Positions 33,424 to 63,506 of a stretch of DNA of 64,000 bases are shown here, in pieces. A program made the position numbers and the translations under genes. This DNA comes from Blastocatellia bacterium (GTDB lineage: Bacteria > Acidobacteriota > Blastocatellia > UBA7656). Numbering within the stretch: position 1 is the stretch's first letter; each line of letters begins with the position of its first letter. The notes below the pieces were generated by a model. The model was not told the origin of the DNA. It ran no database searches and saw only the letters and a list, made by a program, of their open reading frames with translations. The DNA lies in contig CAVXWP010000001.1 of NCBI GenBank assembly GCA_963765495.1, positions 736,001 through 800,000 of the forward strand, given 5' to 3'.

Positions 33424-33634
33424 CAGAGAGCGCGTGACTGAGATTGAAATCACAAATCTCCATTCACAAATCTCAAATCACACAGGTATTCTTCGGATTG
33501 CGCGGATATTTTCTCTGTACGGCTTTCCCGTAAATAGTGCTATACTTGGCCAATTCCGGCCCGCGCCCCTGTGATTTCTCAGGTATTACCAGGTGTCGGG
33601 CAGGGCATATCAAGCGAGGACAGAGATCAAGTTT

Positions 33635-35863
33635 ATGGGCGTTCGCGGAGAGATTCATTTTCTAAACGAAGATGCAGGTGATGTCTTCACGGTTGAAACC
33701 CCACGATTCACAATCGGACGCGGGATTGAAAACTCGCTCTGTCTGCCCGATCCAAGCGTCTCTCGCTTTCACGCAGAGATCATACGTCTCGGCAAAGATT
33801 TTCTCCTCAGAGACCTCGGCTCCACAAACGGCAGTTATGTCAACGGTGTTCGCGTTGCCGAGCAAATGCTCAACGACGGCGACCTTGTTTTGTGCGGCGA
33901 GTTCGGCCCCCGATTGCTTTTCAAGCAGATTGAAGATTCACAGGAGATCCTCGCGCAAAAGCGGCCTCGCTGGGGCAGGACCGAAAACCTTATAAAATCG
34001 CTCTCACACAAGCTCGACGATCTGACAACGGATGAGCGCGAAGAGGTGAGCCTTCGCTGCGTGCTGGCCGAAGCCTACATCAACAAGGGCAAGCACGAAG
34101 ACGCATTCGATATGCTCTCGAAATATGTGGCCCCGGTCAGGTTGCTTTCGCTGTCGCCGGAATTTCGCGCCTCGGTCCTTTACTGGGTGGGCTCCGTCTA
34201 CATCGAGAGAAAGCAGTACGCAAGCGCCATAGACGCCTTGCATCGCAGTCTCGATTATTACACACAGGTTGGAGACAGCACCGGGATAGCCGGCGCGCAT
34301 ACTTCGCTCGGTCGCGCCCTGAGCAGCACGGGAGATTTGCTTGCGGCCCGCGACTCTCTGCACAGGGCTATGCTTGTCGCGCGGCGTGCCGGAAACGCGC
34401 GGCTTCGCGCCGAGGTCCATCTGCTCGTAGGAAAGCTGGATTGGAAGGAAGGCGATCTGGAGGGCGCGCGCTATAACTGGATGCGTGCCGCGCGTCTGGC
34501 CGAAGGCTCAAGCGATGCGCTGTTGCAGGCGCGCGCGCAGCTTCAGCAGGCGTTCGTGCTCTACAGTGAAGGCAAGCTCAAAGAGGCCGTGCCCGCTTAT
34601 CAGGCGGCTATAGATCAGATCGAGGCGGTCGAAAACGTGCGCTTTTTGCTGAAAGCCTACAGCAGCCTGTCTCGCGTGCTGACGCATCTCGGGTCCTGGA
34701 TTGCGACCGAGCGCCTTTTGGAAGACCGTATGCGCCTTGCGCGCGAAAATTCTATCAGTAAGGCCGAAGCCATAGCGCTCACCGACCTTGCAGAGTTGAG
34801 ACTGAGGCAGGGAAATTTCATCGCCGCCTGGAATGTGATTCACGAAGCGATAGAGCGTCACGGCCCGGTTGTTTATGCGCGCACGCAGAGAATACTGGGG
34901 CGCATACTCTGGGTGCGCAAACGCCATCTGGAAGCCGTCGAGGCGCTCGAAAAAGGGCTTGCCTCGGCATCGAAAAAAGGCTCGCTCGAAGAACAGATTC
35001 TGATAGGGCTCGAGCTTGCATTGATCTACCTGGAGAGCGGCGACACGGCGCGCGCATTCGAACATCTGGTCGCGGCCGAATCGGTCACACCGCTCGACCC
35101 GGCTCTCGGTTTAATGGGGCGGGCGCTTTACACGCGCGGGCGCATACAGGCCGAGGCAGATCAAACGGCGGAAGCAAATCGCTGCTTTACGCAGAGCCTC
35201 TCGATACACCAGACGATAGGCGACCCGTTCCGAGCCGCTATGTGCCACGCGGCCATAGGGGCTTTGCGGGCGCGCATGGATCGCCCCGAATCGGCTCGCG
35301 GTCACCTTGAAGAGGCGCATGAAATCTTCACACGCCTCGGAGCCGCCTTCGAGCTTGAACAGGTCGAAGCCGAATTAAGATCGGGCGAACTCGATCTGGT
35401 CGAGGCGAGTATGACCCGCGCGCTTTCGCCCGGTCTGACGATGACCGCGCCCCTGTCGCTTTCAAGTACGACGACCGTGACGATGATAAGCCCCAGCCCG
35501 CATCGTGTACTTGTGGGCGAGGCAAATGATGATCTGGCCGCATTGCTTACAAGAGGGCTTGAAGTCGAGAATTATGTCGTAGAGCGAGCCCGCGATGGGC
35601 GCGAAGCCTTTGAGCAGGCCACTGACCGCAAAGAGTCTTTCGACCTGCTTGTGCTCGATACCTTGCTCGAACACCGCTCAGGCTTCGATGTCTGTTGCGA
35701 GTTGCGAAAGATCAAGCTTGAGATCCCGGTCATTTTGCTGGGGAATCGTCAGGGAGTCGAAGACAAGATCGAGGCGCTACAGGCCGGAGCGGATGATTTC
35801 ATCGCCAAAAAAGATATGGTCTTCGAAGAATTGCTGGCAAAAATAGAAGCACTTTTAAGATAA
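33635..35863 (+). CDS. FHA-TPR-receiver domain signalling protein
   Basis: FHA (IGR...VSRFHA...DLGSTNGSYVNG); many helical TPR-like repeats; C-terminal REC (LLVLD, GADDFIAK). Confidence 0.85.
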   Translation: MGVRGEIHFLNEDAGDVFTVETPRFTIGRGIENSLCLPDPSVSRFHAEIIRLGKDFLLRDLGSTNGSYVNGVRVAEQMLNDGDLVLCGEFGPRLLFKQIEDSQEILAQKRPRWGRTENLIKSLSHKLDDLTTDEREEVSLRCVLAEAYINKGKHEDAFDMLSKYVAPVRLLSLSPEFRASVLYWVGSVYIERKQYASAIDALHRSLDYYTQVGDSTGIAGAHTSLGRALSSTGDLLAARDSLHRAMLVARRAGNARLRAEVHLLVGKLDWKEGDLEGARYNWMRAARLAEGSSDALLQARAQLQQAFVLYSEGKLKEAVPAYQAAIDQIEAVENVRFLLKAYSSLSRVLTHLGSWIATERLLEDRMRLARENSISKAEAIALTDLAELRLRQGNFIAAWNVIHEAIERHGPVVYARTQRILGRILWVRKRHLEAVEALEKGLASASKKGSLEEQILIGLELALIYLESGDTARAFEHLVAAESVTPLDPALGLMGRALYTRGRIQAEADQTAEANRCFTQSLSIHQTIGDPFRAAMCHAAIGALRARMDRPESARGHLEEAHEIFTRLGAAFELEQVEAELRSGELDLVEASMTRALSPGLTMTAPLSLSSTTTVTMISPSPHRVLVGEANDDLAALLTRGLEVENYVVERARDGREAFEQATDRKESFDLLVLDTLLEHRSGFDVCCELRKIKLEIPVILLGNRQGVEDKIEALQAGADDFIAKKDMVFEELLAKIEALLR

Positions 35864-35887: not shown

Positions 35888-37048
35888 ATGGCTGTGCGCG
35901 TGATCATAATAGGAGCCGGGCGGGTTGGATGCGGCGCACTGGGGATGGCGCTGGCCTTGCAGGGGCACGAAGTAGTCTTTGCGGCCCGGCGCGATGACAT
36001 AGTTGATTCGATAGCCCGGTTTGGTTATGACATCGTGACCAAGGGCGATGTAGAGGCTCGCGTTCAGGTGCGCGGAGTGCGCGCCGTAAATTTCAATCGG
36101 CCTGAATTTGCCTCTGAAATAGCCCTTGCCGATCAGGTCTATACCTGTGTGCGACCGGATAATCTTCCAACGGTCGCCCCCGTGCTTGCCGAAGCGATTC
36201 TTCACAGAATCAGATCCGACATAAGACGCACGCTTGATGTCTTTTGCTGCGAGAACCTGAAGAACGCCGGGTCGCAACTCGAACGCCTGACGTTTACATA
36301 CGTGCCTTTTGCTTATGCGCAGCAGGTACAGAGCCTCATCGCCTTTAATGCGGCGGTCTCAGACCGCGTAGTCTCCGGGCAAGAGATGGACCCGGAGGGC
36401 CGACTCGTCTTTACATCGGACGCGAAAGGCGATGTGTTGTTTGATGTCTTGCAGATAAAAGGCGATTTCGAAATATTGCCGCCCTTCAAGGGTCTCGAGA
36501 ACTTTCCCGCCTGCATAGAAGAGAAGCTCTATATCCTCAATTGCGGTCATGCCGCCTGCGCCTATCTGGGTTACAAACGCGGCTATACATACATTCACGA
36601 AGCGATGGCCGACGAAGCGATCAATCGGTGCGTGGTCGGGGCTATGCTTGAAGCGCAGCGGGCGCTTCATCTCAAACACGGGCACACGCTCCATTACGGC
36701 GGATTCATAAACGAGATACTCGCAAGCTTTTCAAACGCCGCGCTGATGGATACGATTGCGCGCGTAGGTCGCGACCCCGTCAGAAAACTTCAGGCGGATG
36801 ACCGCCTGATCGGGCCTGCAAAGCTGGCCTTTCGTTACGGCCTGAACCCAACCTATCTCATAAAGGGGGCGGCGGCGGCTCTCTCTTTTACTTATGCCAG
36901 TGACCCGCAGGCGGTCGAGCTTCAGAAGACGATGAGCGGTAGCGGCATCGAACAGACGCTCGACACAATATCTCAACTGCGCCCCTGGAATCCTATATCG
37001 GAACTCATCCGCAAAGAGTTCGAACGAACCACGGCCGCCGCCTCTTGA
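35888..37048 (+). CDS. mtlD: Mannitol-1-phosphate 5-dehydrogenase-like protein
   Basis: GAGRVG, CEN, SDRVV, EKLYILNCGH, RVGRDPVRKL...DRLIGP; GGAGG RBS. Confidence 0.8.
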   Translation: MAVRVIIIGAGRVGCGALGMALALQGHEVVFAARRDDIVDSIARFGYDIVTKGDVEARVQVRGVRAVNFNRPEFASEIALADQVYTCVRPDNLPTVAPVLAEAILHRIRSDIRRTLDVFCCENLKNAGSQLERLTFTYVPFAYAQQVQSLIAFNAAVSDRVVSGQEMDPEGRLVFTSDAKGDVLFDVLQIKGDFEILPPFKGLENFPACIEEKLYILNCGHAACAYLGYKRGYTYIHEAMADEAINRCVVGAMLEAQRALHLKHGHTLHYGGFINEILASFSNAALMDTIARVGRDPVRKLQADDRLIGPAKLAFRYGLNPTYLIKGAAAALSFTYASDPQAVELQKTMSGSGIEQTLDTISQLRPWNPISELIRKEFERTTAAAS

Positions 37049-42264: not shown

Positions 42265-42279
42265 GGCACATATAGATTT

Positions 42280-45405: not shown

Positions 45406-45417
45406 GAGACATCGGTG

Positions 45418-45468: not shown

Positions 45469-45566
45469 CAAATTCCATTATCTGGTGTCCGGCGCTCAGC
45501 TTGACCCGGATGTGCCTTTGCTGTAGCCTCAAACTTAAGGATTTAGAGAGTAGGAGGTAACAAATC

Positions 45567-45806: not shown

Positions 45807-45886
45807 ACTCGACGAACAAAACGCGGGCATAAATTATTTATGTCAGGCATCAATTATTGTGGTTCGAATCATCGGATGGATTGGTT

Positions 45887-47214: not shown

Positions 47215-47241
47215 CTCGCTTTATCGCGCAGGAGGCGAATC

Positions 47242-48303: not shown

Positions 48304-48329
48304 ACTCGTAAAAAATGAAAAAACCTGGG

Positions 48330-48402
48330 CAAGATTAACAGGATTAACAGGATTTTCTTTCAATCCTATTTCAGAAAACTTGTTAATCTTGTTAATCCTG
48401 TC
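48330..48402. repeat. Inverted pair of 9-mer repeats (GATTAACAG / CTTGTTAAT)
   Basis: aagattaacaggattaacaggat ... cttgttaatcttgttaatcctgt. Confidence 0.75.
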
Positions 48403-48438
48403 TAAGATTCCGGCATCAATTTGCGAGGATAGTCAAAT

Positions 48439-49275
48439 ATGATAAGTCCGTTGCACATAGGAGTTCTCGTCGAAGCTCGCTATCTCGTTCAGAGTCAGCC
48501 TTCGGGCATGATTCGGGCTCTTAAGGCCGAGGGGCATCGTGTTGAGGTGATAGACCCGCAGACGGATGCCTATGTGTTGGGCGATGATCGATGGCTTGAA
48601 GGGTTTGACGTGGCGCTTGGGCGTGGGCGCAGCAACGCGTTGTTGTGTCTGCTTGCCTGGGCGGAATCCTTTGGCATCCCCGTCATCAACCGCGAAGCGG
48701 CAATCGCCTCCGTTTATGATAAAGCCGAAATGTCTGTGATTCTGGCAAGGGGCCGCATACAGACTCCGCGCACTTTTTTTGGCAGCATCGCTTCACTCGC
48801 CCGGCAGGTCTCCGAAGGTTTCTATCCGCTTATACTCAAACCTATCTTTGGCGATAATTCTCAAGGTTTGCTTGTAGTCTCTTCTCCCGAGGAGATGGCC
48901 GGGATAGAATGGCGAGACCCCGTGGCCCTCGCTCAGAGCTACCTGCCCACGGATGGATATGATGTGAAGCTTTACGGCATTGGCAATGAGGTATGGGTAG
49001 TGCGAAAACCGTCTCCGTTCAACAAGCCTGTTGAACCGATTACCGGCAAATCGGAGGCCGAGTTGCTGCCGCTCACGCCGGAGCTTGAAGCGCTTGGCAG
49101 GCGTTGCGGTCAATTGTTTGACCTTGAGCTTTACGGCGTTGATTGCATACTGACGGAAGAGGGGCCGCTCGTGATCGAGATAAACGAATTTCCGAATTAT
49201 ACGGGCGTGCCTGAGGCCGACCGCAGGCTTGCCGAGTACGTCACCGAGCGGGCGCGGCAGGAGCAATCAAAATGA
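48439..49275 (+). CDS. ATP-grasp protein 1 (RimK-size; ITPK1-like motifs)
   Basis: DK, ILKP, AQSY, DVKLYGIG, LYGVDCI, VIEINEFPNYTGVP. Confidence 0.88.
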   Translation: MISPLHIGVLVEARYLVQSQPSGMIRALKAEGHRVEVIDPQTDAYVLGDDRWLEGFDVALGRGRSNALLCLLAWAESFGIPVINREAAIASVYDKAEMSVILARGRIQTPRTFFGSIASLARQVSEGFYPLILKPIFGDNSQGLLVVSSPEEMAGIEWRDPVALAQSYLPTDGYDVKLYGIGNEVWVVRKPSPFNKPVEPITGKSEAELLPLTPELEALGRRCGQLFDLELYGVDCILTEEGPLVIEINEFPNYTGVPEADRRLAEYVTERARQEQSK

Positions 49276-50102
49276 GGATCGCGATAATCGGAGTCCGCCA
49301 CAAGGAGGACCGCAAAAGCCCGCTGGTCGCTGAGCTTATCGGGTTGCTTTCCGAAAAAGGCGCAAGCGTGGATATGCTCTATCCCGAAGACGATCTGATT
49401 GATCTTGCGCGTGTGCGCGTCGCCTATGACCTCTATGTTTACAAATCGGGAACCGAGACGGCCTTTGCGCTTGCGGGGATTTTGAACGCGGCGGGCGCTC
49501 AGATACTCAACCCTTACAGCGTAGTGGCCGCGATGAAAGACAAGTTCATCGCCTCAAAAATCCTCGAAGCCGCGCGCATCCCGCTGCCCGAAGCCTACAT
49601 GGCGGCAGAGGCCGGTCAGCTTGCCGGGTTGCTTGACGGGGGGGCGCTTGTCGTCAAACCTTTCTGGGGGTCGCAGGGGCGCGGCGTTCAGGTGATACGA
49701 AACCTCGAAGAACTCGACCGGATAGAGACAGGGCAGGGGCCGATATTTGCGCAGCGCTACCACGAGCCTGACGGGCGCGACCGCAAGATATATTGCATAG
49801 GCGGAAAGCTCTTTGGCGTGATGCGGATTTTTCCGGCGCGAACATACGAAGAGAAACTCGGCGAGGTGTTCACACTCACAGACGAAATGCGCGACATCAC
49901 CGAGCGCGCGGGTCGGGCCTTTGGCATTGACCTGTTCGGGCTCGACATCATATTGAGCGACGGGCGTCCTTACGTGGTAGACATAAACACATTTCCCGGT
50001 TTCAAGGGAGTGCCGGAGGCGGCCCGCCTGCTTGCCGATTATATTTACGGCGCAGCCACGCGCGCGCTAAAAGGCGAGCCGTTGATCGAGGGTTGGGAGT
50101 GA
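49272..50102 (+). CDS. ATP-grasp protein 2 (RimK-size; ITPK1-like motifs)
   Basis: YDLYVYKS, KDK, VVKP, AQRY, DRKIYCIG, LFGLDII, VVDINTFPGFKGVP; ATGA overlap with gene 1. Confidence 0.9.
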   Translation: MRIAIIGVRHKEDRKSPLVAELIGLLSEKGASVDMLYPEDDLIDLARVRVAYDLYVYKSGTETAFALAGILNAAGAQILNPYSVVAAMKDKFIASKILEAARIPLPEAYMAAEAGQLAGLLDGGALVVKPFWGSQGRGVQVIRNLEELDRIETGQGPIFAQRYHEPDGRDRKIYCIGGKLFGVMRIFPARTYEEKLGEVFTLTDEMRDITERAGRAFGIDLFGLDIILSDGRPYVVDINTFPGFKGVPEAARLLADYIYGAATRALKGEPLIEGWE

Positions 50103-50208
50103 ATTTGAAATTGATTTGAGGCCGAGACGCCTCAGATTGATTTGATTCACACGCGCTCATCTGAGATTTCAAATCTGAAATCTCAAACCTTTGGGGTGAG
50201 GAAAGATC

Positions 50209-51033
50209 ATGAGACTTTACTTTATGGTAGTCCGTCGCGTTCCGCCCGTGCCGAGCCCGGTGCTTGTGGAAGCCTACGAGATATTGCGACATCGCGGGTT
50301 CGAGATCGAATCCGGCATAGCCGAAGAGGTTCTGTTGCGGCCCGACGAACTGGTTCCCTCCTACGACCTCTACATACTCAAGTCGCACACGGAGTTGTCG
50401 CTCAGCCTGGCGGGGATTCTTTATACTCAGGGCGCGCGACTGCTAAACCCTTACGAGTCGTGCGCGCTGACGCAGAACAAACTCGTAGTCTCGCGGCTTT
50501 TGCAGAAGGCAAACGTCCCGGCCCCGCGCTCGTGGGTGACGGCTGACCTCTCGCTTTTGCGCGAAGTGGTCGAAGAGACGCCGCTTATAATCAAGCCATA
50601 CATGGGCCATCGCGGAGCCGGTATAGTCAAGGTGACAAACCCGGATGAGCTTATGGCGGTTCCAAACCCCGACGCGCCCGTGATAATTCAGGAGTACATC
50701 GAAGGCAGCGGCGAAGACCTGAAAATTTACGTAGTGGGCGAACAGGTCTTTGGCGTGCGTAAGCCGTTTTCGGAAACGAGCTTTACGGTGCCGGGCCGCC
50801 CCGTGCCGGTCTCGGATGAGGTGCGCGACCTGACCATACGCGCGGGCCGGGCTTGCGGGCTCGGGTTGTACGGGCTCGATGTTATCGAAAGCCCTCGCGG
50901 CCCGTTTGTCGTGGATGTGAATTACTTCCCCGGATATAAAGGCGTGCCCGATGTAGCGCCCATCATCGCCGATTATATCGAAGGCTACGCCCGCGAGCGG
51001 TTTACTCTCACCCCGCCCGCACCCGTTCAGTAA
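50209..51033 (+). CDS. ATP-grasp protein 3 (RimK-size; ITPK1-like motifs)
   Basis: [47 protein letters not shown]. Confidence 0.9.
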
Positions 51034-51061
51034 CCCCGCGGATTTGCCGGGCAGACTCCGA

Positions 51062-52330
51062 ATGCGACTTAAGCCTGAACAGATAAACTCCTCTCTGCTG
51101 GTCCTACTCGCGGAGGGCTTTCTCTCAAGACTCAGCTTTGGGCTGATCAGCTTTGCCCTGCCGCTTTATGCCTACTATCTGGGGCTGAGCCTGACCGAAA
51201 TCGGATTGCTTGCCTCGCTCAACCTCGTGGTCGAACAGACGTTCAAACCTGTGATGGGCTGGGCGGCGGATCGATTCGGACTGAAGCGAAGCTTTACGAT
51301 TGCAATCGCGCTCAGAAGCGTAGTCGCCTTGATGCTTGCCTTCGCCTCCGCGCCGTGGCAATTGTACGCGATACGCATCGTTCACGGTTTATCGGAATCG
51401 CTGCGCGACCCGTCTGTCAATTCGCTTCTTGCAGATAACGGCACACCGAAAAATACCGCTTCGCATTTCGCGTGGTATTCGACCGCAAAGACCGTCGCGG
51501 GCTCGCTCGGCAAAACCACGGCGGGGTTGCTGCTCACTTTTACGGCTTACAATTATTCAAGGGTCTTTATGGTCGCGTTCGTTTTATCCGGGTTGCCGCT
51601 TTATGTCGTAGCCCGTTACGCGCGAGAGAGATCGTCGCTCGACCAATCAAAGAGCGGGCATACGTCTGAGGCGAGCGCCCCGCCTGAGGCTCTCGAAATT
51701 GAGAATACGACGGTCGCGGCCCCCGAGCGCATGGCGATATTTCCGGTCGCGGTGCTCGGGTTTCTGATCGCCTCCTCGGCAAACATGATGAGCAATCTGT
51801 TTCCAATTCTGGCAAAGGAGTACGCCGGATTGAGCGCGGCAGAAACGGGGCTGATCTATTCGATTTCGATAGCCGTTGTGATCGTTTCAGGACCGCTTTT
51901 CGGATGGCTTTCCGATAACGTCAGCCGAAAACTGGTGCTGATGGTGCGAGGCATTTCCAATACCATCTCTTCAATTCTTTTCATAATATTCCCGACCTTT
52001 GCCGGGATAGCCGTGGGCAAGGCCGTCGATGATCTCGGCAAATCGGCCTATCGCCCGGCATGGGGCGCGGTGATGGCACGCGTCTCGGGTTTCGACAGGC
52101 GGCGGCGGGCGCGTACCATCGGGTATCTGAGCATGGGCGAAGGGATTGGCGAGACCGTGGGCCCGGTGCTCGCAGGGTTGCTCTGGAACGTGTGGGGGGT
52201 GGGCGCGTTGCTTGGTGCGCGAGTGGCGCTTGCCCTCATCAGCGAAATCTATACGGTGATCGTTACAAGAGAGTTGGATAAGGGAAGCGAGCAGGTTGGA
52301 GCGAGACGTTTTATAATGCGTGATGCGTGA
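51062..52330 (+). CDS. MFS transporter
   Basis: About 12 hydrophobic segments; motif A GWAADRFGLK and GWLSDNVSRK. Confidence 0.92.
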   Translation: MRLKPEQINSSLLVLLAEGFLSRLSFGLISFALPLYAYYLGLSLTEIGLLASLNLVVEQTFKPVMGWAADRFGLKRSFTIAIALRSVVALMLAFASAPWQLYAIRIVHGLSESLRDPSVNSLLADNGTPKNTASHFAWYSTAKTVAGSLGKTTAGLLLTFTAYNYSRVFMVAFVLSGLPLYVVARYARERSSLDQSKSGHTSEASAPPEALEIENTTVAAPERMAIFPVAVLGFLIASSANMMSNLFPILAKEYAGLSAAETGLIYSISIAVVIVSGPLFGWLSDNVSRKLVLMVRGISNTISSILFIIFPTFAGIAVGKAVDDLGKSAYRPAWGAVMARVSGFDRRRRARTIGYLSMGEGIGETVGPVLAGLLWNVWGVGALLGARVALALISEIYTVIVTRELDKGSEQVGARRFIMRDA

Positions 52331-52412
52331 TGCGTGAGTTTTGGAGTCCCAGTTAAAAAGAAACCATCTTTCAGATCACGCATCACGTATCACGCATCAT
52401 TGAGCGCATCAC
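52316..52412. repeat. Inverted pair of (GTGATGC)/(GCATCAC) heptamer arrays
   Basis: atgcgtgatgcgtgatgcgtga ... atcacgcatcacgtatcacgcatca. Confidence 0.75.
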
Positions 52413-52478
52413 GGAGCGGCTGTGGTATAAGAATGAGCCAGACAGGCCGCACCCGTATGAGTCAGGAAAGGAAGCCTT

Positions 52479-53339
52479 ATGCGAATCTGTTTTTTGATGG
52501 AACCGCCCAGAAGCAAGACCTCTGTCACGCACGACATACTCGATGGCTTGAAAAGCGAAGGCGCTGATGTGGAGATAGTCACCGAGCGCACGGGGCTTGT
52601 TGACCTCGAAGGCTTCAAGTTTGACTACGACCTCTATCTTTTCAAGTCTCACTCGCCGCTTGCGGAGTCCTTAGCCGCCGCCGCTCATTACAGAGATTCT
52701 CTTTTGTTAAACGAATACCCGGCGACGATGAAGGTCCGCGATAAGGTGCTGACCTGCACGATGCTCTTGCAGGCGGGGCTGCCCACGCCGCGCACTTTTG
52801 TGACCGATTCGATAGAGACGCTTCGCCCGGTTGTGCGACGTATGCCGATAGTTGTAAAGCCTTATCGCGGCAGACGCGGGCAGGGAATAGAGGTTTGCAT
52901 GGATGAGGCTCAATTTGATGCGCTCATCAAGCGCCGCGCCGGAGAGTCTGTTTCAGATGACGAAGGCGGCGAAGACGGGACCGCGCTTGGCGAGCGGCTG
53001 ATCTTTGCTCAGGAATTTGAAGAACACGAGCCGTTCGATTATAAAGCCTACGCGATAGGCGATTATGTTCACGCGATAAAGCGGATATTTCCGGCCACGA
53101 CCAGAGAAGAAAAAGACGGCACGCCCGTTGGTGACGATCCCGAGCTTCAAGACCTTGTCAAGCGCACGGGCCGATTGTTTGGCCTCGAACTCTACGGCGT
53201 CGATCTGGTCAAGACGCCAAAGGGATTCTCGGTCATCGAAGTCAATTGTTTCCCCGGTTACAAAGGGGTTCCTCAGGCGGGCGAGCGCATAAGCAAATTT
53301 ATCGTGGATCGTGGCAGGCAACTTATTTCTGCGCGATAA
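52479..53339 (+). CDS. ATP-grasp protein 4 (RimK-size; ITPK1-like motifs)
   Basis: [49 protein letters not shown]. Confidence 0.9.
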
Positions 53340-53377
53340 TCTCTGACCTCGACGGCCACTAAATCAGCCGGTCCAGA

Positions 53378-53406
53378 TTGACAAACAAAAGGGCGAGGAG
53401 TAAAAC
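53378..53406 (+). promoter_or_regulatory. Putative sigma70 promoter for the NHL / kinase-MFS / DUF3616 genes
   Basis: TTGACA-N17-TAAAAC. Confidence 0.4.
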
Positions 53407-53515
53407 GACGATGTTCACAAGCCATGCGTAAGCGCCCCAAACTCAGGCAGCAACGCTAACGGGCCGGACTCTCATTCAGGTTGTTTCCGGCTCTGTCGTT
53501 ATTAGGAGGAATTTT

Positions 53516-54892
53516 ATGAGCAGAAGCCCCGTATTTAAGACTCAGTTCACAAGTTCTATGACAACGGCTGTGATGATCTTTCTCTTGCATCTGGCCGTTG
53601 CCGGTTCCGCACTGGCACAGGCGCAGACAGGCAACGCGCCGCCTGAGCCCGAGAAAGACCCGCAGCGCGCGCACTGGCGCATAGAGGTCGAGCCTTATGC
53701 CGTTTTAGGCAGCGGGCAGCCCGGCAAACTGGCCTCCGATTTCGGCAAACCCGACGGCGCTGCATTCACTCCTACGGGTTTGCTGCTTGCAACCGACGGG
53801 AAGAATCGCCGGGTGCAGGTCTGGGACGTGCGCAATCGCACGCACCTGGGCGAATTCGGCCACAAAATCTTTGGAGGCGAGATCGTCGATATAGCCGTTA
53901 TGCCCGACGGACGAGTGCTTGTAACCGATCAAACGCTCAATCTCGCTTACGTATTCGCCCCTCCCGCGCCGGGCGAAAAGGACGAGAACGGCAAGACGCT
54001 CGGCCCTTACGATTACCAGTTCAAGGGCACGCATTTCGGCGAGCAGGGATTCAATAAACTCGGAGGCATAGCCGTTGATTCGCGAGGCAGGATCTATCTG
54101 GTCGACGCGCATCTGAACGATGTGCGCCGCTTCAACTCCGACTTCTCGCTCGATTCGTCGTGGAAGTTCGAGCGGGCGCGACCGGATGGGACCACCTATC
54201 TTCACGGCTGCGAAGGGATCGCTATAGATGAGCAGGAAGGAAACCTTTTTATAGCGAGCGAAAAGGATTACATCATTCAGGTCTTCGATCTTGAGACAGG
54301 AGCCTACAAGCGCCGACTCATCGGCGCGGGCGTGGATAAATCGGGACAGCCCGTCGGGCAGTCCGTATTTTCGGGTTCGGTCGAAGGTCTCGCCGTCACG
54401 CGAAATCATCTTTTCGCCGTAGACGAAAACGCCGGTTTTATTCAGATATTCGACATCATGAAGCCCGACAGCTTCAATGTTGATCTTGCCGGATACAATC
54501 GGACGCGGCGCACTCGATCAGGCGGATACAGGGGATTTTTCGGCCATTCGCCTCTGGTCAACTTTGCCGATAAAGAAGATACAGCGCTGCAAAAACGCTT
54601 GAAGGATGGTTCGATAATACCGGGGCAGGCCAATCCGCCCGGCTATTTCTGCTCGCCTGACGCGATTGCCAGCTACACCGATGACGAATCGGGCGAGACA
54701 TATATCGCCATAGCCGATCAGTGGAATTTCCGGCTTGCCGTCTATCGCTGGTCCGATCTGACCAAAGCGATGGAGCCCGCCTCGGCAAAAAGCGAAGCCG
54801 GGGCGAAAGGCAAATCGAAAGGCGGAGGGAAGAAGAAAGGCGATGGAAAGGGAAAGAATAAGGACGGCAAGAAGAAGAAAAAAAAGAATTGA
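53516..54892 (+). CDS. Exported NHL-repeat beta-propeller with Lys-rich C-terminal tail
   Basis: AGGAGG RBS; signal peptide ALA-Q; FGKPDG, GIAVDSRGRIY, EGIAID, IADQWNFR repeats; tail KGKSKGGGKKKGDGKGKNKDGKKKKKKN. Confidence 0.85.
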   Translation: MSRSPVFKTQFTSSMTTAVMIFLLHLAVAGSALAQAQTGNAPPEPEKDPQRAHWRIEVEPYAVLGSGQPGKLASDFGKPDGAAFTPTGLLLATDGKNRRVQVWDVRNRTHLGEFGHKIFGGEIVDIAVMPDGRVLVTDQTLNLAYVFAPPAPGEKDENGKTLGPYDYQFKGTHFGEQGFNKLGGIAVDSRGRIYLVDAHLNDVRRFNSDFSLDSSWKFERARPDGTTYLHGCEGIAIDEQEGNLFIASEKDYIIQVFDLETGAYKRRLIGAGVDKSGQPVGQSVFSGSVEGLAVTRNHLFAVDENAGFIQIFDIMKPDSFNVDLAGYNRTRRTRSGGYRGFFGHSPLVNFADKEDTALQKRLKDGSIIPGQANPPGYFCSPDAIASYTDDESGETYIAIADQWNFRLAVYRWSDLTKAMEPASAKSEAGAKGKSKGGGKKKGDGKGKNKDGKKKKKKN

Positions 54893-54967
54893 CCTGATTA
54901 AAGACTTGCTCGTAAAAGTAAATATATTACGGTCCTCTGCCGGGACTTCTGTATCTGAGGAAATGTT

Positions 54968-57900
54968 GTGAAACTCTGTCCCGTCTGCAAAAAAGAAGCC
55001 CCCGACGAGCGCAAATTTTGCCCTTTTGACGGGACACCTCTTCCTGATCTTGCGCCGCCCGCCTCGCCCGGCGATGCCGCGAGAGCCTTTCCCCTGCTTA
55101 TAATTCAATCTCCCGGCGGGCAGGTTCAGGAAGAGGCGATCACAACAACGCCGATCAATATAGGCCGCGCGCCCGATAACGACCTCTCGCTTTCCGACCC
55201 TACCATCAGCCGCCATCACGCGACGCTTATCTGGGAGGATGGGCAGTACAGAGTTGTGGATGCGGGCGGGCGCACGGGTCTCTTTGTCAACGGGCGTAGA
55301 GTAGATGAACAGGGATGGGCACTGTGTCAGGACGATGTCATTACAATCGGGCGAACTCAGATCACCTTTCAGATTCCCGGCATCGAGCTTGGCGGGCACC
55401 CATCCAGAACTGCTCGCACACAGGGCCAGCCAGATTCCACCCCCGATTCGGCTTATCCCGAACAGGCGGGGCATATCGAAATACTGACCCCTTCCGGGGA
55501 ACGCCTCTATGTAAATCTCGCGGGCGACCCGGTAAGGATAGGCGCGGGCGCAGACAATGACGTAGTGCTCGACGACCCGGCCATCAGTCACAACCACGCG
55601 ATCATAGGTTTGCGCGACGGCGGGTGGTACATTCAGGATGCGGGCAGCCGCAACGGCGTCTTTGTCAATAGGAAACGGGTAGGCTCGGACGGGCAGCCCA
55701 TCGAGCCGGGTGATTCGATAATAATAGGCCGCACACGTATCGCGCTCGCGCTTGGCCCCGAGACAGCCGATGTTCCCGTGCTCGACGAGAAGGCCACGAA
55801 ATCCGGTTTGACCGGGTTGCCGCCCACCAGACCTTTCTCCCCAAAATCTTCTCCTTCGGAGGCGGAAGGCGCTCAGGGCTACAAGACGCCCGCCGCTATA
55901 CCTAAGACCGGCCCCGCCGGTCTGCCTTCCATAGTCCTGGACAACCGATATAAGCTCGGAGCCCGAATCGCGCAGACATCGACCGGCACTCTTTATCGCG
56001 CCCGTCGCATAGCTCTTGGCGATGAAGTTCTTGTGAGAGTCCTGTACCCGGATCTGGTGCGCGACCCGGCAGCTTACGCGCGGTTTCGCAGGGGCGCGCA
56101 GGTGGCGGCAAGGATACAGCATCCGAATTCAGTCAAGATATTCGATTTCGGCTCGACCGAGGATGGGGTCGTCTATGTCGTAGAAGAGTTGCTATCGGGC
56201 CGCACCTTGCGCAATCTGATAGTCGAAGAGCGCGGCCTGACCTTGCAGCGCGTCGTCGGGCTGTTCAATCAGATATGCGGGGCCGTACACGCGGCGCACC
56301 TCAACGGCATAGTGCTGCGCGACATAAAACCCGAATCCATCTTTATCGAAAAGGGGCCGGACGGCAAAGAGCTAATCAAGGTGGGCGGTTATGGTCTGGC
56401 CAAGCTCAGCCCCTCGGAAAGCGCGGGCGTGACTATGGCCAGTCAGGCAAAAGTCTTCGGAGCGCCGCAATATATGTCGCCCGAACAATGGCTCGAACGC
56501 CCGCTCGACTCCCGATCCGATGTCTATTCGCTCGGCGTCATCCTCTTTGAATTGCTCACGGGCGCTGTGCCTTTTGACGCGCTTATGCCGGGAGAAATCG
56601 CCCAATTGCATCTGACCGCAAGGGTGCCGGATATTACCGAACTGGGACGCCCCGATCTAAACGAGGATGTGGCGGCTGTGGTAAATCGCGCGCTCGCAAA
56701 AGACCCGAAAGACAGACAGCCCACGGCACTCAATCTGGCCTCCGAGCTTCAGGCCGTATCGGGCGCGCCGCGCGGCATACTGAGCGATTTCCTGAGCCGG
56801 ACCATAGGCATAAAAGCCCTGCCGCCTGTTGTCGTACCGACTGCGCCCGCCTCGGTCCCTGCCGGAGAAGAGACCTTGCCATCGGTTGTCGCCGCGCCCG
56901 AGCCTAAAGCGGGCGGCTCGCTCAACCCTGTGGTCCTCGCCCTGATGTGTGAGGCCTTTCTTTCGCGCATATCGAGCGGGATGATAAAGACGGCCGTGCC
57001 GCTTTATGCGCTGCTGGTCTTTGGCCTCGACATCACTTCCGTCATGGTGCTCGTGCTGATTCAAAACATAGTGCCCCTGCTGCTGCGCCCCTTCTTTGGC
57101 ACGCTCGCCGACAGGTACGGCAAGAAGCGCGTATTTTTGATCGCGCTTGCCATTCGCACGCTTGTCAGCATACTTTACGCGCTAGCCACGCTGCCGCTTT
57201 TATTTATCATCAGCGCCATAAGGGGGATAGCCGATTCGGCAAAAGGGCCGTCGGCCTCGGCTATGATAGCCGACAACACGGACGAGCGACACATAGCCAA
57301 AGCCTATTCCTGGTATACGACTACGAAATCGACATCGGGCGGCATCGGCGAGGCGCTGGCGGCTTTCCTGCTGGTCACACTGATAGTCTTTCTCTCTGGC
57401 AGCCAGAATGTGACTGTAAATGTGGCCGTGCTCGAAGAGAATCATCTGGGCAAGCCTGTGGAAGAGATTTTAAAAAGCCCGGCGGATGTGACCGCAGACC
57501 GGATGCTGCCGGGAACCGAGGCCAACCCGAAGCCGCGCCGTGTGCTCATGGTAGAGCAGCGCCAGATGCCGCTCAGTCAGGTTCCGCTCGAAGATTTGCC
57601 AAAGGTCATAGAGGACACGTTCCTCAGGAGGGCGCTCGTTGTCATCTTTGTGGGTTCGACTATTCTTTCGGCCATCTCGCTCATATTGGTTGCCGTCTTT
57701 ATTCGCGAAAAAGACAAGTCAAAGAAAGTGAAAAAGAGCGCATCCAATGAATCCGCCCTGCTCGACAGATCAACCTCGCCCGCCACGCAGCCAAACATCT
57801 GGGCATTTGCGCTGATGGGCACGGCGCTCACGGCTCCGGCCTACATGGTAACGGGCGAGTTTTTCACCGTGCTTGCGGTGAAACTGGAAGTCACATCGAA

Positions 57901-58369
57901 TGCGCTCGGATGGATAAAGATACTGGCCGAGACCATAGTGCCGCTCCTGTTCGGCCCGTTTTTCGGCTGGCTTGCCGACCGCGTAGGAACAGGAAAAGTG
58001 ATCGCGACGCGCTCGATTGCCAACCTGGCCACGTCGCTGCTGTTTTGGATAACGCCCTGGTTTGCCGGAACCTTTTTGCTCAGCACGATGATGGGGCTTG
58101 CGCGCGGGGTTGACGAAATAGGCAAGGCCGCCTTCAAGCCTACGTGGGGAGCCATCGCGGCCAAAGTGTCGAGTTTCAATCTGAGCAATCGAAGCCGGAC
58201 TATGGGCATACTCGAAGGCGGTGTTGACGCATCGGACCTGGCTTTCCCGGTGCTTGCGGGGTTGTTGTTGCAATACCTCTCGCTCGGCCTCCTGATGGCC
58301 GTCCGCGCCTTGTTTGCCATCGCCGCCGAAGTTTACACTTTTATCCTCATGCGGAGATACAGGATTTAG
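54968..58369 (+). CDS. Zn-ribbon, FHA, FHA, Ser/Thr (pseudo)kinase, MFS transporter fusion protein
   Basis: CPVC..CPFDG; two FHA domains (IGR..ISRHHA; IG..ISHNHA..GSRNG); kinase HPN, RDIKPE, YMSPEQ, SDVYSLG; C-terminal MFS ([18 protein letters not shown]). Confidence 0.88.
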
Positions 58370-58491
58370 CATATCGAGATTTGAGATTTGAGACTTGAAA
58401 CCTCAGATGGGCGCGTGTGAATGAGATTAATTTCCAGCGTATTTGGTTTGCATTTGACGATAAAGGCGAAAATCGAAAGGTAAAGGATAAG

Positions 58492-59526
58492 ATGAGAAGT
58501 GATATGGATAGGATAAGAACAGGTGGTTCCGGCCTCCCACACGGGTCGGCCTCCGCTTTTTTGTGTATGGCTATAATCGTTATTTCGGTTATCGGGGCCG
58601 CCTCTTGCCACGGAAGTTCCAACAATAATGAGGCTAATGAGACGATGGCAAAGGGCGAGAAGAAGCATAAGGAAAGATCGAAAGGGATAGGCGAAGGCAT
58701 TGCGATCAAAGGGGGAACGTTTGAAACATCCGGGGCGGCGCAGGTTCCCGGAACCGATTATCTGCTCGTCGTTGACGACGGCAGAAACGATCAGATTCTC
58801 TTGCTGCAAATAGACAAAACGGGCCAGCAGGTAGGCGACCCCACTCCCTTAGACCTCGGGGTGAGCGTCAACGACCCGGAAGGCATCACCTTTGACGGAA
58901 CATATTTCTACATCGCGGGCTCGCAATCCCGGCCAAAGCAGGAAGAGAAAAACGCGCTCGCGCGATTTGTCTTTGACTCAAACACGCGGCAGATAAAGAG
59001 CGCGGAGGCGATAAAGGATTTCAGGTCGTGGCTCCTCGAAAAAGCGCCCGAGTTAAAGGCCGAAGGCGACCAGAAGGGCGAAGACGGCGGGCTGAACATC
59101 GAAGGCATCGCGTGGGACCCCGATCATAAGCGCCTTCTGCTCGGGTTGCGCTCGCCGTTTGTCGGCGACAAGGCAATGATTATACCCGTGAGTTTACGCA
59201 CGCCAACCGGCCCGTTTTCAGCCGACAATTTGCAGGTTGAAAAAGCCATCGAGTTGCCACTCGGCGGTGCGGGCGTCAGGGACATTCAATACGACAACCG
59301 ATTGAAATCTTTCCTGATAATTTCGGGCGCGCCTGAAACGCGCAAGAAAGGCGAATTTGATCTCTGGCGGTGGGACGGCAATTCAGAACCGCAGAAGATG
59401 GCCGTGCTTGATCGCAAATTGAAACCCGAAGGCGTAGCGCCGATCAAAATGGCCGATAGCGATTTTATCTTTGTAGTCTGCGACGCGAGTTTTTATTTCA
59501 AAATCGACTACCCCGAGGGGCAGTAG
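58492..59526 (+). CDS. DUF3616-like beta-propeller lipoprotein
   Basis: Lipobox AASC; FETSG, VVDD, DPEGIT..GTYFYIAGS, GLNIEGIAW..RLLLGLRSP, LGGAGVRDI, KPEGV; start uncertain (58417 also possible). Confidence 0.8.
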   Translation: MRSDMDRIRTGGSGLPHGSASAFLCMAIIVISVIGAASCHGSSNNNEANETMAKGEKKHKERSKGIGEGIAIKGGTFETSGAAQVPGTDYLLVVDDGRNDQILLLQIDKTGQQVGDPTPLDLGVSVNDPEGITFDGTYFYIAGSQSRPKQEEKNALARFVFDSNTRQIKSAEAIKDFRSWLLEKAPELKAEGDQKGEDGGLNIEGIAWDPDHKRLLLGLRSPFVGDKAMIIPVSLRTPTGPFSADNLQVEKAIELPLGGAGVRDIQYDNRLKSFLIISGAPETRKKGEFDLWRWDGNSEPQKMAVLDRKLKPEGVAPIKMADSDFIFVVCDASFYFKIDYPEGQ

Positions 59527-59697
59527 GCAGTAGGCAGTAGGCAGTTTTTAAGGGGGAATATCGCTATCTATACAGATGCCTGATTAGAACGGTGGGAATA
59601 GACCACGGACGGACGCGGATCGGGCGGATTTACACGGATGAACTCATCGCTTCAAAATAACTGCCTACTGCCTACTGCCTACTGCATACTGCCTACT
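59521..59697. repeat. Inverted (GTAGGCA)/(TGCCTAC) heptamer arrays enclosing a half copy of the AATAGGCC repeat
   Basis: cagtaggcagtaggcagtaggcagt ... aatagaccacggacggacgcggat...tttacacggatg ... actgcctactgcctactgcctactg, between convergent genes. Confidence 0.8.
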
Positions 59698-60747
59698 ATC
59701 CATAGGCCACTGTCTGGGCTTGCGGCCTCGTTTGAACATCAATTGGGGGAACATCAGATTGGCGCGAAACCGCTCAATCGAGTGGTCTCGTTCGACGTGT
59801 ATTCGCGGCAGGGCGAATCGGTCAAACTCATCATAAAATGCCATCGAGTCTTCATAAGATACAGCGTAGTGAAATCCTGCGCGGGCCACTGCTTCCTTTG
59901 CTTCGAGGCTGAATCTGGAGAGCGTCCCCGCCGGATAGGCGAATGCTATGGCCTCTTTCCCCAGATGTCGTTCGATGGCTCGCTTGCTTTCAAATATCTC
60001 CTGCTCAAGCTGCGCGTGGCCGACATTGGCAAGAATCGGATGTGTGATCGTATGACTGCCAAACTCGATGCCTTCGGACGCCATCAGATTGATCTCTTCC
60101 CAGGTGAGCATCATCTTTCGGGCAAGGTGCTCGGGCATCTCTACATCGAGTTCCAGATTGAGTCTTTCCAGAAAGCCCTGTCTGACCTCTTCGGGAACCT
60201 CCTTGATCCATTCAAGCACGCGCTCGATGGCGCTGCGTCTGTCGATTGCAGACCGAAGCGACATAGGCTCTCCTGAAACTGAGGGGAAGGAGATTTCCGC
60301 GCGCCGGGTTTTTTTCAATGAGTAAGTGATCCGATCCCACCAGAAGAGCTTCGATTGATTTATACAGCCCGTCGTGAGAAAGATGGTCGCAGGGAGCGCC
60401 AGAGCTTTCAGCACGGGGAAGGCATTGGTGTAATTGTCTTTGTATCCGTCATCGAAGGTGATCAGCAGAGCGCGGTGGGGCAATTTTCGCCCTTCGATCT
60501 CCGACTGGCGCAGGTCTTGAAAAGAGATAACATCAAAATTGTTCCGCGCAAACTTCATCTGATTATAGAAGCTCTCGGTGTCGGCGCTTATCAACTCTTC
60601 GTCAAAAGGAAAGGTGGCCGGGTCATCATCTATCACGCGATGATAGGCGAGTATGCGCAAGCCCTCCGAGCGGGCGCTGGCAAGCGACCATATTCGGCTG
60701 GTGAATTGATTGCCCAATAAGCGGGATGCAATCTCTCGTCTGCTCAT
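59665..60747 (-). CDS. Polysaccharide deacetylase (NodB/CE4)
   Basis: ILAYHRV, ITFDDGY, FGSHTITHP, FAYP. Confidence 0.92.
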   Translation of the reverse strand: MSRREIASRLLGNQFTSRIWSLASARSEGLRILAYHRVIDDDPATFPFDEELISADTESFYNQMKFARNNFDVISFQDLRQSEIEGRKLPHRALLITFDDGYKDNYTNAFPVLKALALPATIFLTTGCINQSKLFWWDRITYSLKKTRRAEISFPSVSGEPMSLRSAIDRRSAIERVLEWIKEVPEEVRQGFLERLNLELDVEMPEHLARKMMLTWEEINLMASEGIEFGSHTITHPILANVGHAQLEQEIFESKRAIERHLGKEAIAFAYPAGTLSRFSLEAKEAVARAGFHYAVSYEDSMAFYDEFDRFALPRIHVERDHSIERFRANLMFPQLMFKRGRKPRQWPMDSRQYAVGSRQ

Positions 60748-60756
60748 AATCGGCTC

Positions 60757-61905: not shown

Positions 61906-61928
61906 AACTTATCTCCAAATCAGGCTCA

Positions 61929-63467: not shown

Positions 63468-63506
63468 AAGGTCCGTCGAGGCTCTGGAAATCTCTAATCT
63501 CAGCCT

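Follow-up and report, generated by a model that had tools for sequence, protein, structure and literature searches.

The 64,000-nucleotide stretch of Blastocatellia bacterium DNA analysed here (hereafter, the window; GenBank assembly GCA_963765495.1, contig CAVXWP010000001.1, forward-strand positions 736,001 to 800,000) carries a gene encoding, in one 1133-residue chain, a cysteine knuckle, two forkhead-associated (FHA) domains, a protein kinase-like domain and a complete major facilitator superfamily (MFS) permease. The fusion is real, and its conservation among relatives indicates that it is under purifying selection. Its kinase-like domain has lost most catalytic residues throughout the family, its permease looks transport-competent, and the gene travels with a cassette of ATP-grasp genes and with a second, soluble FHA protein. 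Taken as a whole, the fusion probably ties small-molecule export to the phosphorylation signalling of the cell.

The gene consists of a single unbroken frame with a GTG start, and its product is a 100% match to collection copy P0002. The assignment of the start codon is backed by the best 120 relatives returned by a word-index search (the window's own copy included), whose N-termini align from residue 1 (M in 71, V in 20 and L in 5). Pfam analysis identified two FHA stretches (PF00498, E 2.2e-36; the best at residues 64-128, with a Yop-YscD_cpl match overlapping the second FHA at 182-260), a Pkinase domain (330-584, E 2e-31) and MFS_1 in two stretches (E 1.2e-28), all far beyond chance given these E-values, and the protein is accordingly assigned by its domain matches to the MFS, FHA and protein-kinase-like superfamilies. 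An earlier reading of the DNA letters, made with no database search (hereafter, the sequence-only reading), had described one continuous 1133-residue open reading frame joining a signalling module to a complete MFS, which both the frame and the Pfam matches bear out. A full-length AlphaFold2 model built with 75 relatives (mean predicted local distance difference test score, pLDDT, 80.7) resolves six confident blocks separated by disordered linkers, and the gene and its parts are laid out as follows.

54968..58369, + strand: whole gene, Zn-knuckle / FHA / FHA / pseudokinase / MFS fusion (1133 amino acids, stop included)
54968..55051, + strand: N-terminal Zn-ribbon-like knuckle, residues 1-28, with C4, C7, C18 and D21 (family columns, AlphaFold2)
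55085..55378, + strand: FHA1, residues ~40-137, GR and SRHH kept, SxNG turn reading GRTG (Pfam, family alignment, AlphaFold2)
55460..55753, + strand: FHA2, residues ~165-262, lacking the phosphothreonine-binding Arg (IGAGAD), SHNH and SRNG kept (Pfam, AlphaFold2)
55931..56761, + strand: predicted PknB-like pseudokinase, residues ~322-598, with R357, G376, L450-R-D452, S457 and G474-Y-G (Pfam, PknB alignment, fold search)
56762..56926, + strand: juxtamembrane linker, residues 599-653, with candidate phospho-Thr T612 and the PAGExxLPSVV motif (family alignment)
56927..58366, + strand: MFS domain, 12 transmembrane (TM) helices (654-1131 in AlphaFold2), motif A-like sequences at 711-721 and 1000-1010 (Pfam, AlphaFold2, fold search)
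57398..57616, + strand: predicted periplasmic beta-sheet insert between TM5 and TM6, residues ~811-883, specific to the fused clade (AlphaFold2 models, alignment)

Every motif quoted in the sequence-only reading was found in the protein at its place: AQTSTGTLY at 335-343, VLVRV at 354-358, LRDIKPES at 450-457, GGYG at 473-476, YMSPEQ at 502-507 and SDVYSLG at 517-523 in the kinase domain, GR at 66-67 and SRHH at 81-84 in FHA1, and SHNH at 207-210 and SRNG at 227-230 in FHA2. An antisense open reading frame (54518-56122, - strand, 534 amino acids) overlaps the FHA and kinase part; it matches no Pfam family and is probably a chance frame in this 60% GC DNA.

Pkinase and MFS_1 occur together in all of the best 120 relatives, with FHA present as well in 117. 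These proteins derive from NCBI, JGI, ENA and Logan assemblies, the named ones being Blastocatellia or Acidobacteriota metagenome-assembled genomes (MAGs), and carry NCBI automatic names such as 'MFS transporter' or 'bifunctional serine/threonine protein kinase/MFS transporter'. Across 41 genomes of the same class, the window's own among them, an ortholog of full or near-full length with the kinase-MFS junction in one frame was found in 13, spanning nine genera, one of them with an internal TAG; in an even phylum sample of 401 genomes the fusion appeared in three, all belonging to that class. A search with the MFS part against 1.84 billion 50%-identity representatives returned three full-length fused clusters plus fragments, after which identity falls to ~40%, and the short MFS-only matches above 60% identity are, almost without exception, located on contigs of 1-4 kb or represent one half of a split copy. 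The sequence-only reading had noted that its architecture would fall if the junction were a chimera or a stop codon lost in this genome alone, with relatives encoding kinase and MFS apart. Neither situation was found: the best relatives are all fused, and the MFS-only matches are mostly fragments. Since the fused layout recurs in these 120 relatives and in 13 of 41 genomes, and since the linker is conserved (0.55-0.72), the junction is, on this comparative evidence, neither an assembly chimera nor a private lost stop.

Read coverage of the junction, which the same reading had proposed to confirm, was found in two pieces only. Logan contigs match the window with 100% identity at 56307-56802 and 56822-57446, free of joints, indels and loose ends; a 19-base gap lies between them, depth is 4-5 and no single contig spans the junction. 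Both belong to a single soil-metagenome run (X1); as this is probably the sample from which the genome came, they are not independent evidence and are too thin to count either way. No RNA run was listed among those containing the stretch. Some broken copies of the fusion were also observed. The G020 ortholog (G020:C149:8138-10927) contains an internal TAG, and on two metagenome contigs the gene is called as separate kinase-MFS and MFS pieces (P0146/P0158 and P0157/P0177); all of these may reflect sequencing errors or decay.

The kinase domain scores 109.8 bits against the Pfam Pkinase model (cut-off 31.7) and 244 bits against NF033483, which is under the curated cut-off of 450, and its fold is intact in the AlphaFold2 model (pLDDT ~88 over 322-598). 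By sequence its closest solved relative is Mycobacterium tuberculosis PknB (E 1.8e-47), and PknB chains also top a Foldseek search with the full-length model (TM-score, TMt, 0.76-0.87; 34-36% identity), which gave kinases only. Alignment to PknB, and columns from the window protein aligned with 119 relatives (120 sequences), reveal that most catalytic positions have been replaced. The Gly-rich loop reads AQTSTG in the PknB column and is cut to one Gly in the family; the beta3 Lys position holds R357 (family Arg 107, Lys 13), the alphaC Glu position G376 (Gln 106, Glu 4), the HRD His position L450, giving LRD (an aliphatic Leu, Val or Ile in all 120), the catalytic-loop Asn position S457 (Thr or Ser in 114), and the DFG motif reads GYG (Gly 109, Asp 1). 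The catalytic-loop residues D452 and K454 are retained here (Asp in 97, Lys in 102), the C-lobe motifs YMSPEQ (containing SPE) and SDVYSLG are unbroken, and the activation segment (477-507) aligns to PknB without deletion, the window protein having two extra residues. Conservation per block of the kinase fold is 0.75-0.85. The fold has been kept, then, while the catalytic motifs have degraded in a manner shared by the relatives.

Because it is conserved, folded and stripped of catalytic residues, the domain is, as judged from these alignments, a pseudokinase with a non-catalytic job, and its inactivity is a family-wide trait that would have arisen already in the family's common ancestor. The sequence-only reading had called a pseudokinase from the degeneration of the Gly loop, Lys, HRDxKPxN and DFG with intact C-lobe motifs, a call that holds and extends to the whole family; the loss of the alphaC Glu and the retention of D452 and K454 are additions to it. 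Five defining features of an active Hanks kinase were looked for and not found, so the fusion protein is predicted not to be one. The genome holds 56 Pkinase matches, among which the fusion's kinase ranks 43rd (113.9 bits), the best 37 scoring 153-198 bits. Two N-lobe residues, PknB L33 and D76, are mutated in PDB entries among the fold-search matches; they correspond to L350 (at least 90% conserved) and D393 (invariant) of the fusion and belong to what we take to be the back-to-back dimer interface of PknB. Analogous residues of the MviN pseudokinase are described as mediating back-to-back dimerisation in the main text of a 2025 review (PMC12599244). The domain fits the class with divergence in all three canonical motifs as defined there, and pseudokinases degraded in all three motifs are, by the same account, nearly always without ATP binding (PMC12599244).

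Both FHA domains are well folded in the model (pLDDT 89-96). The canonical phosphothreonine-contact set of an FHA domain comprises the Arg of GR, the Ser and His of SxxH and the Asn of SxNG. FHA1 presents R67, S81 and H84, with G101 and T103 replacing the Ser and Asn of SxNG, whereas FHA2 has Ala in place of the Arg and presents S207, H210, S227 and N229. This agrees, position by position, with the earlier description of FHA1 as keeping GR and SxxH and of FHA2 as keeping SxxH and NG without the GR arginine; one point is added to that description, namely that FHA1 lacks the SxNG Ser and Asn that most relatives keep. In the family columns, the SxxH Ser is present in 116 and its His in 117 of the 120 sequences, the SxNG Ser in 108 and its Asn in 91, and the Arg position is usually Lys (82, against 18 with Arg). 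FHA1 is the FHA shared by nearly all relatives (occupancy 0.97): a single FHA is present in 104 of the 119 relatives and a pair in 12, and three lack the domain. A complex prediction of the pseudokinase (320-600) with FHA1 (40-137) gave no verdict (score 0.00, mark 0.32) and is not used as evidence.

The N-terminal segment reads CPVC ... FCPFD and folds with a pLDDT of 84. The 'Zn-ribbon' of the sequence-only reading is described here as a small folded, Zn-ribbon-like knuckle: zinc ribbons have two CxxC knuckles with four Cys ligands, here there are three Cys plus Asp, and no Pfam zinc-ribbon match to the knuckle was obtained at E <= 0.1. The Cys are present in 79-80 of the ~80 sequences in which these columns are occupied, the fourth position being Asp in 60 and His in 21. 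The juxtamembrane linker, modelled as a short helix and disorder (pLDDT below 50 at 614-616 and 636-648), carries T612, in a column that is Thr in 101 of 120 sequences and lies in a T-x-x-hydrophobic context in 81. FHA domains prefer pT-x-x-hydrophobic sites. Just before TM1, the linker also holds PAGExxLPSVV (G633 in 117, E634 in 113, L637 in 114 and P638 in 117 of 120), whose strong conservation within otherwise disordered sequence points to a putative binding site.

The MFS domain scores 100.5 bits against MFS_1 (PF07690; cut-off 33.4) and is the best-conserved part of the protein (0.84-0.94 in most blocks). It has 12 helices, in keeping with the two six-helix bundles of MFS carriers, in both the full-length model and a model of the MFS part folded alone (pLDDT 86.9; predicted TM-score, pTM, 0.83). 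Motif A of MFS carriers, located in loop 2-3, follows the consensus Gx3(D/E)(R/K)xG(x)(R/K)(R/K), and here motif A-like G..D..G(K/R)(K/R) sequences lie in loops 2-3 (711-721) and 8-9 (1000-1010), with G711, D715, G718, K719, K720, G1000, D1004 and G1007 invariant in 75 sequences. Sixteen invariant columns are common to fused and standalone MFS in an alignment of 37 rows. Fold matches to the MFS-only model include NorA, LmrP and VMAT as the best (TMt 0.69-0.79) and also Escherichia coli YajR, itself an MFS carrying an additional soluble domain (overall range 0.66-0.79, 12-15% identity). With these exporters the fusion shares the 12-TM fold and motif A; unlike it, none of them has a kinase/FHA module or a periplasmic beta domain between TM5 and TM6. 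By sequence and model, the MFS domain looks transport-competent, with a DHA1-exporter-like fold. Basic residues lie on the loops after TM2, TM4, TM6, TM8 and TM10 and at the C-terminus, and since they pile up on the predicted cytoplasmic side, the N-terminal FHA1-FHA2-kinase module is predicted to be cytoplasmic, as any contact with kinases would require.

The sequence-only reading had missed one feature of the permease, an insert of ~80 residues with beta strands on the predicted periplasmic side between TM5 and TM6, for which pLDDT taken in 10-residue blocks is 79-91 in the full-length model and 77-90 in the MFS-only model. This loop measures 82-84 residues in 11 of 11 fused-clade rows and 1-2 residues in 26 of 26 standalone relatives, the second MFS of the window included. 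An atlas search with the insert as query gave no usable match.

Genomic context provides what we consider the strongest evidence on the function of the fusion, and the neighbouring genes that bear on it are the following.

48439..53339, + strand: upstream cassette of four paralogous RimK-like ATP-grasp genes at 48439-49275, 49272-50102, 50209-51033 and 52479-53339 (Pfam, synteny)
51044-52330, + strand: standalone paralogous MFS within the cassette (Pfam, synteny)
53516..54892, + strand: NHL-repeat beta-propeller (weak 'Phytase-like' PF13449 match) between cassette and fusion, in a variable slot (Pfam)
58417..59526, + strand: DUF3616 protein, 48-bp gap downstream of the fusion, kept only in the nearest relative (57% identity, L009) (Pfam, synteny)
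33593..35863, + strand: FHA-TPR-receiver (FHA-TPR-REC) protein, candidate partner (domain search, synteny, co-occurrence)
35888..37048, + strand: mannitol-1-phosphate-dehydrogenase-like (MtlD-like) oxidoreductase, fifth enzyme of the cassette, here 11 kb upstream (domain search, synteny)

The ATP-grasp proteins are of the RimK/LysX type as classified by Pfam, and all four score under the RimK TIGR00768 cut-off (71.9-91.6 bits against 143.4). Four ATP-grasp genes adjoin the fusion in 8 of the 11 related loci fetched, and in G011 as well; in G022 the cassette lies 20 kb away on the same contig, and the G005 and G020 assemblies are fragmented. Of the 13 fusion-bearing genomes, 12 also contain an ortholog of the fourth ATP-grasp gene, which was found in none of the 28 that lack the fusion. 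The link between the fusion and the ATP-grasp cluster that the sequence-only reading had suggested is thus strongly supported by both synteny and co-occurrence.

The standalone cassette MFS is 33-38% identical to the fused MFS. Both permeases occur together in the window, G006, G032, G040 and G036, and in G020 a standalone ortholog lies on a different contig. For genus g21 (four genomes), a standalone-MFS query matched only the fusion's own MFS domain at E <= 1e-20, and with no other match at that threshold the fusion is the only permease found for the cassette of these genomes.

The FHA-TPR-REC gene is the other consistent companion. At E <= 1e-80, its distribution over the 41 genomes coincides with that of the fusion: all 13 carriers have an ortholog, and the remaining 28 have none. 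In all eight related loci holding the cassette the gene lies within the cluster region; in seven it neighbours the first ATP-grasp gene, on the other strand, and in L009 it lies beyond the fusion gene. The MtlD-like gene comes next in each of the four loci that extend far enough to show it. The FHA of the FHA-TPR-REC protein has the canonical residues (GR, SRFH, STNG) and is 39-46% identical to that of the fusion (tblastn), and its receiver keeps the context of the acceptor Asp (LVLD). In G026 this gene is read in two pieces (C20:47696-49970), which may be a sequencing error or decay.

A secreted beta-propeller phytase (PF02333, E 1.7e-100 to 5.8e-108) is encoded between the fourth ATP-grasp gene and the fusion in three genera.

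L011:12307-13989, - strand: phytase (PF02333)
L012:7466-8773, + strand: phytase (PF02333)
L013:6749-8107, + strand: phytase (PF02333)

The window genome's own phytase homolog (66% identity) is on another contig (C16:207073-208041). The phytase hints at phosphorus scavenging or polyol phosphates and, together with the MtlD-like gene and a match of the ATP-grasp proteins to PF05770 (Ins134_P3_kin), offers a lead toward inositol phosphates. An inositol-phosphate pathway was not adopted as an explanation: the PF05770 match covers only ~60 C-terminal residues (E 3e-7 to 4e-13), and the RimK/LysX models cover more.

Other genes in the window do not form part of this set. Two stretches of ordinary-looking genes (28817-33423 and 37936-47214), which in this genome only separate the FHA-TPR-REC/MtlD-like pair from the cassette, encode FGGY sugar kinases, LutABC-like lactate utilisation proteins, CNNM/CorC, an M28 peptidase, LeuB, a TonB-dependent-type outer-membrane barrel with a CarboxypepD_reg domain and a BNR protein. 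The upstream LeuB-like (47242-48303), M28 peptidase and CNNM genes had no match in the fetched parts of other loci and were treated as inserted bystanders. On the - strand, 59665-63893 encodes a polysaccharide deacetylase, a GNAT protein (Acetyltransf_6), a right-handed beta-helix protein and a second deacetylase fragment, which look exopolysaccharide-modifying and unrelated. A promoter and terminator scan of 47000-60500 returned 10 matches against 7.6 expected and 16 against 15.2 expected, which is what chance would give, and operon boundaries cannot be called from it.

The cassette is much wider in distribution than the fusion. We searched a distant kinase-MFS relative (P0214) against one genome per species, which returned 80 loci, and examined 61 of them (L020-L080), setting aside L081-L099, where the match lay on the kinase part or on a short stretch of the query. 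The 80 loci come from Actinomycetota, Chloroflexota, Gemmatimonadota, Myxococcota and cyanobacterial and proteobacterial MAGs. One to four RimK-like ATP-grasp genes stand beside the MFS in 55 of the 61 (three in 32, four in 6), and an MtlD-like gene is found in 41. The FHA-TPR-REC protein is not part of these wider cassettes, with three weak domain-level matches in the 61 loci. The same MFS clade has acquired other N-terminal additions, namely HTH_25 and a second degenerate kinase (HGD, SFG and no APE, with the Lys kept), and two proteins (P0353, 908 amino acids; P0354, 945 amino acids) join ATP-grasp, Pkinase and MFS in that order. Each of these triple fusions is represented by a single cluster, on a contig of 4.5-5.3 kb, and may be a read-through gene call. 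The expectation that MFS carriers rarely carry such fusions is qualified by the repeated gain of additions in this clade.

The MFS tree recovers the fused Blastocatellia sequences as one monophyletic group (support 100) on a long stem of 1.69 substitutions per site, apart from the group of standalone Blastocatellia MFS (99). The second fused lineage (P0353, P0354, P0214, P0348-P0352, P0373, P0387, P0397 and P0413), which includes kinase and HTH_25 forms, nests among actinobacterial-type standalone MFS, and its nearest standalone MFS by identity and tree include Actinomycetota MAG proteins. Its kinase domains rank the window pseudokinase only 26th-30th of 43-46 kinase matches in G000. A topology that joins both fused groups survives an approximately unbiased (AU) test (p 0.43, delta log-likelihood 1.47). 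An independent origin of the two kinase-MFS lineages is likely from these comparisons.

We tentatively favour, at somewhat less than an even chance, a reading in which the fusion is a phosphothreonine-switched permease for the product of the ATP-grasp cassette, working in the manner of the MviN pseudokinase and FhaA. Of the two ideas in the sequence-only reading, a transporter gated by Ser/Thr phosphorylation and a transceptor sensing the product of the ATP-grasp cluster, both are kept as candidates, the second as the main rival. The permease would move an anionic product, or precursor, of the adjacent multi-ATP-grasp cassette. The dead kinase would serve as a docking and allosteric platform, probably pairing N-lobe to N-lobe with itself or with an active Hanks kinase from a pool of roughly 50 in the genome; many upstream kinases are possible given its 56 Pkinase matches. 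An active kinase would phosphorylate a Thr on the module, the best candidate being juxtamembrane T612, and the phospho-mark would then be bound by one or both fused FHAs, by the FHA of the FHA-TPR-REC protein, or by both. The linker and pseudokinase would shift on the cytoplasmic face of the permease, either freeing or blocking the gate. A phospho-switch on a dedicated permease is preferred because it is the simplest mechanism that uses all the parts.

The precedent is mycobacterial. As described in the main text of PMC12599244, PknB phosphorylates a Thr in the tail next to the pseudokinase of MviN (Rv3910), and the FHA of FhaA is recruited to it, inhibiting the pathway of the transporter. Like the MviN/PknB/FhaA system, the fusion is a polytopic transporter with a cytoplasmic dead Hanks-type kinase domain in which the N-lobe dimer residues are kept. 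Unlike MviN, it has an MFS rather than a MurJ/MOP flippase, an N-terminal rather than a C-terminal pseudokinase, fused FHAs plus a second co-inherited FHA protein where MviN relies on the separate FhaA, and a home in Acidobacteriota (Blastocatellia) rather than Actinobacteria. Seven bacterial pseudokinase families are annotated in the same text (ActPs1-3, GLW, CP1, DYD and DLHK; PMC12599244), and because the activation-loop deletion given there as the hallmark of ActPs3 is absent from the fusion, and phylum and membrane part differ, its pseudokinase is not classed as an ActPs3/MviN-type member and is only proposed to work alike. The likeness to PknB-type Hanks kinases (PknB, PknA, StkP and Stk1), the closest by sequence and fold and with SPE and SDVYSLG intact, ends at the catalytic motifs and PASTA domains, which the fusion lacks, and at the single C-terminal helix, which a 12-TM permease replaces.

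Several observations weigh against a phosphothreonine switch on a dedicated exporter. Each of the two FHAs of the window protein is without one canonical phosphothreonine contact, and Lys stands for Arg in most relatives; since the contact residues are partly lost, phospho-independent binding is possible, by analogy with EssC-EssB. The column of the candidate Thr is without Thr in 19 of 120 sequences. The ATP-grasp enzymes fall under the curated RimK cut-off, so their substrate cannot be named from the family. The genomes compared are kin rather than independent samples, and the co-occurrence counts accordingly overstate the evidence, showing linked gain and loss of a gene set and not statistical proof. 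Finally, the long stem under the fused MFS, its gain of a periplasmic domain and its usual coexistence with an ordinary cassette MFS suit a newly acquired sensory role no less well than they suit a gated transporter.

Such a sensory role is the strongest competitor, and we regard it as possible while rather unlikely: a duplicated and retooled cassette permease would sense the product, or an outside cue, via the periplasmic beta domain and signal through its scaffold to control the cassette, the pseudokinase and FHAs recruiting or allosterically activating a Hanks kinase and the FHA-TPR-REC protein. Permease paralogs that report their substrate to a kinase-based pathway are represented by E. 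coli UhpC (with UhpB/UhpA) and yeast Snf3/Rgt2, MFS-type sensors that provide the models for this idea; UhpC signals to a histidine kinase, and Snf3/Rgt2 recruit casein kinases via their tails. To our knowledge, none of these is fused to a pseudokinase or an FHA domain. The separation of the fused clade from the ordinary cassette MFS, its clade-specific insert, the coexistence of both permeases in several genomes, the perfect match in occurrence with the soluble FHA-TPR-REC protein and the repeated joining of this MFS clade to regulatory-type domains all speak for a transceptor. Set against them, no other cassette MFS was found in the g21 genomes, where any export of the product would oblige the fusion to transport as well; the permease, the most conserved part of the protein, has kept motif A and its clade-invariant polar residues; and a dead kinase cannot emit a phospho-signal and would require an active partner. 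More doubtful still, by a shade, is the full version of this proposal, in which an MFS transceptor founds a new signalling route running from a periplasmic sensor through the dead kinase to an active Hanks kinase and on to phosphothreonine marks read by the fused FHA and by FHA-TPR-REC. If true, that route would combine, within a single module, sensing by a transporter, Ser/Thr signalling and a receiver of the two-component type, and the module would control a widespread multi-ATP-grasp pathway.

It is improbable, in our estimate, that the pseudokinase and FHAs act as a phospho-independent adaptor that keeps the ATP-grasp enzymes, possibly along with the TPR protein, at the exporter's entrance so that the product is channelled out. 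The triple fusions placing ATP-grasp, degenerate kinase and MFS in one chain offer a Rosetta-stone hint of such a metabolon, tempered by their possible origin as read-through calls, and the FHAs are partly degenerate at phosphothreonine contacts. FHA-pseudokinase binding without phosphorylation is documented for YukB/EssC and YukC/EssB of the type VIIb secretion system (T7SSb), where, in the relevant passages of PMC9600267, a membrane pseudokinase pairs with tandem FHAs partly lacking phosphothreonine-binding residues at the hub of a transport machine, as in the fusion. There, pseudokinase and FHAs reside on different proteins of a protein-secretion ATPase complex and their binding is apparently phosphorylation-independent (PMC9600267), whereas the fusion is one chain on a small-molecule permease, and its family FHA keeps SxxH and a basic residue at the Arg position (Ser 116, His 117, Lys or Arg 100 of 120), as for a phosphate pocket.

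We consider it very unlikely that the domain is an atypical active kinase carrying out non-canonical transfer via the catalytic-loop Asp and Lys and Arg357, onto the permease or cassette enzymes. Retention of D452 and K454 in most of the family, of the beta3 Lys in 13 relatives, and the 'bifunctional' automatic name on some of them would suit such an activity, but the Gly loop, alphaC Glu, catalytic-loop Asn and DFG Asp are consistently lost together, the domain ranks low among the kinases of its own genome, and the general lack of ATP binding in its class (main text of PMC12599244) argues the same way. That the gene is an artefact or decaying, a chimera or a recent functionless lost stop, is a negligible prospect despite the broken relatives and the gap between thin Logan contigs, as the same junction and linker motif recur in relatives from several public sources and in nine genera, with a conserved linker and contigs free of joints.

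The domain string of the fusion was already present in databases, along with its NCBI automatic name; what is new is the recognition of a conserved pseudokinase, the periplasmic insert, and the tight linkage to FHA-TPR-REC and the multi-ATP-grasp cassette. A literature search found no paper on an FHA/kinase/MFS fusion or on a multi-ATP-grasp cassette. The main text of PMC12599244 has no mention of MFS, major facilitator, transporter or words beginning with Acidobacteri, and neither does the main text of a bacterial kinome atlas preprint (bioRxiv 10.1101/2025.01.12.632604).

Bacterial pseudokinases are barely studied, and MviN alone provides a worked-out case in which a transporter is regulated via a pseudokinase and an FHA reader. 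The fusion family would be a second, independent case, in another transporter superfamily and with all parts in one chain, and would lend itself, as a compact system, to the study of how a membrane carrier is controlled by a dead kinase. Attention is also drawn to a conserved cassette, matched to no described pathway, of three or four RimK-like ATP-grasp genes, an MtlD-like enzyme and an MFS, which recurs across phyla and which in Blastocatellia comes with its own phospho-signalling layer. Blastocatellia are abundant soil bacteria, and through the clustered phytase, as a lead only, the pathway may bear on their acquisition of phosphorus.

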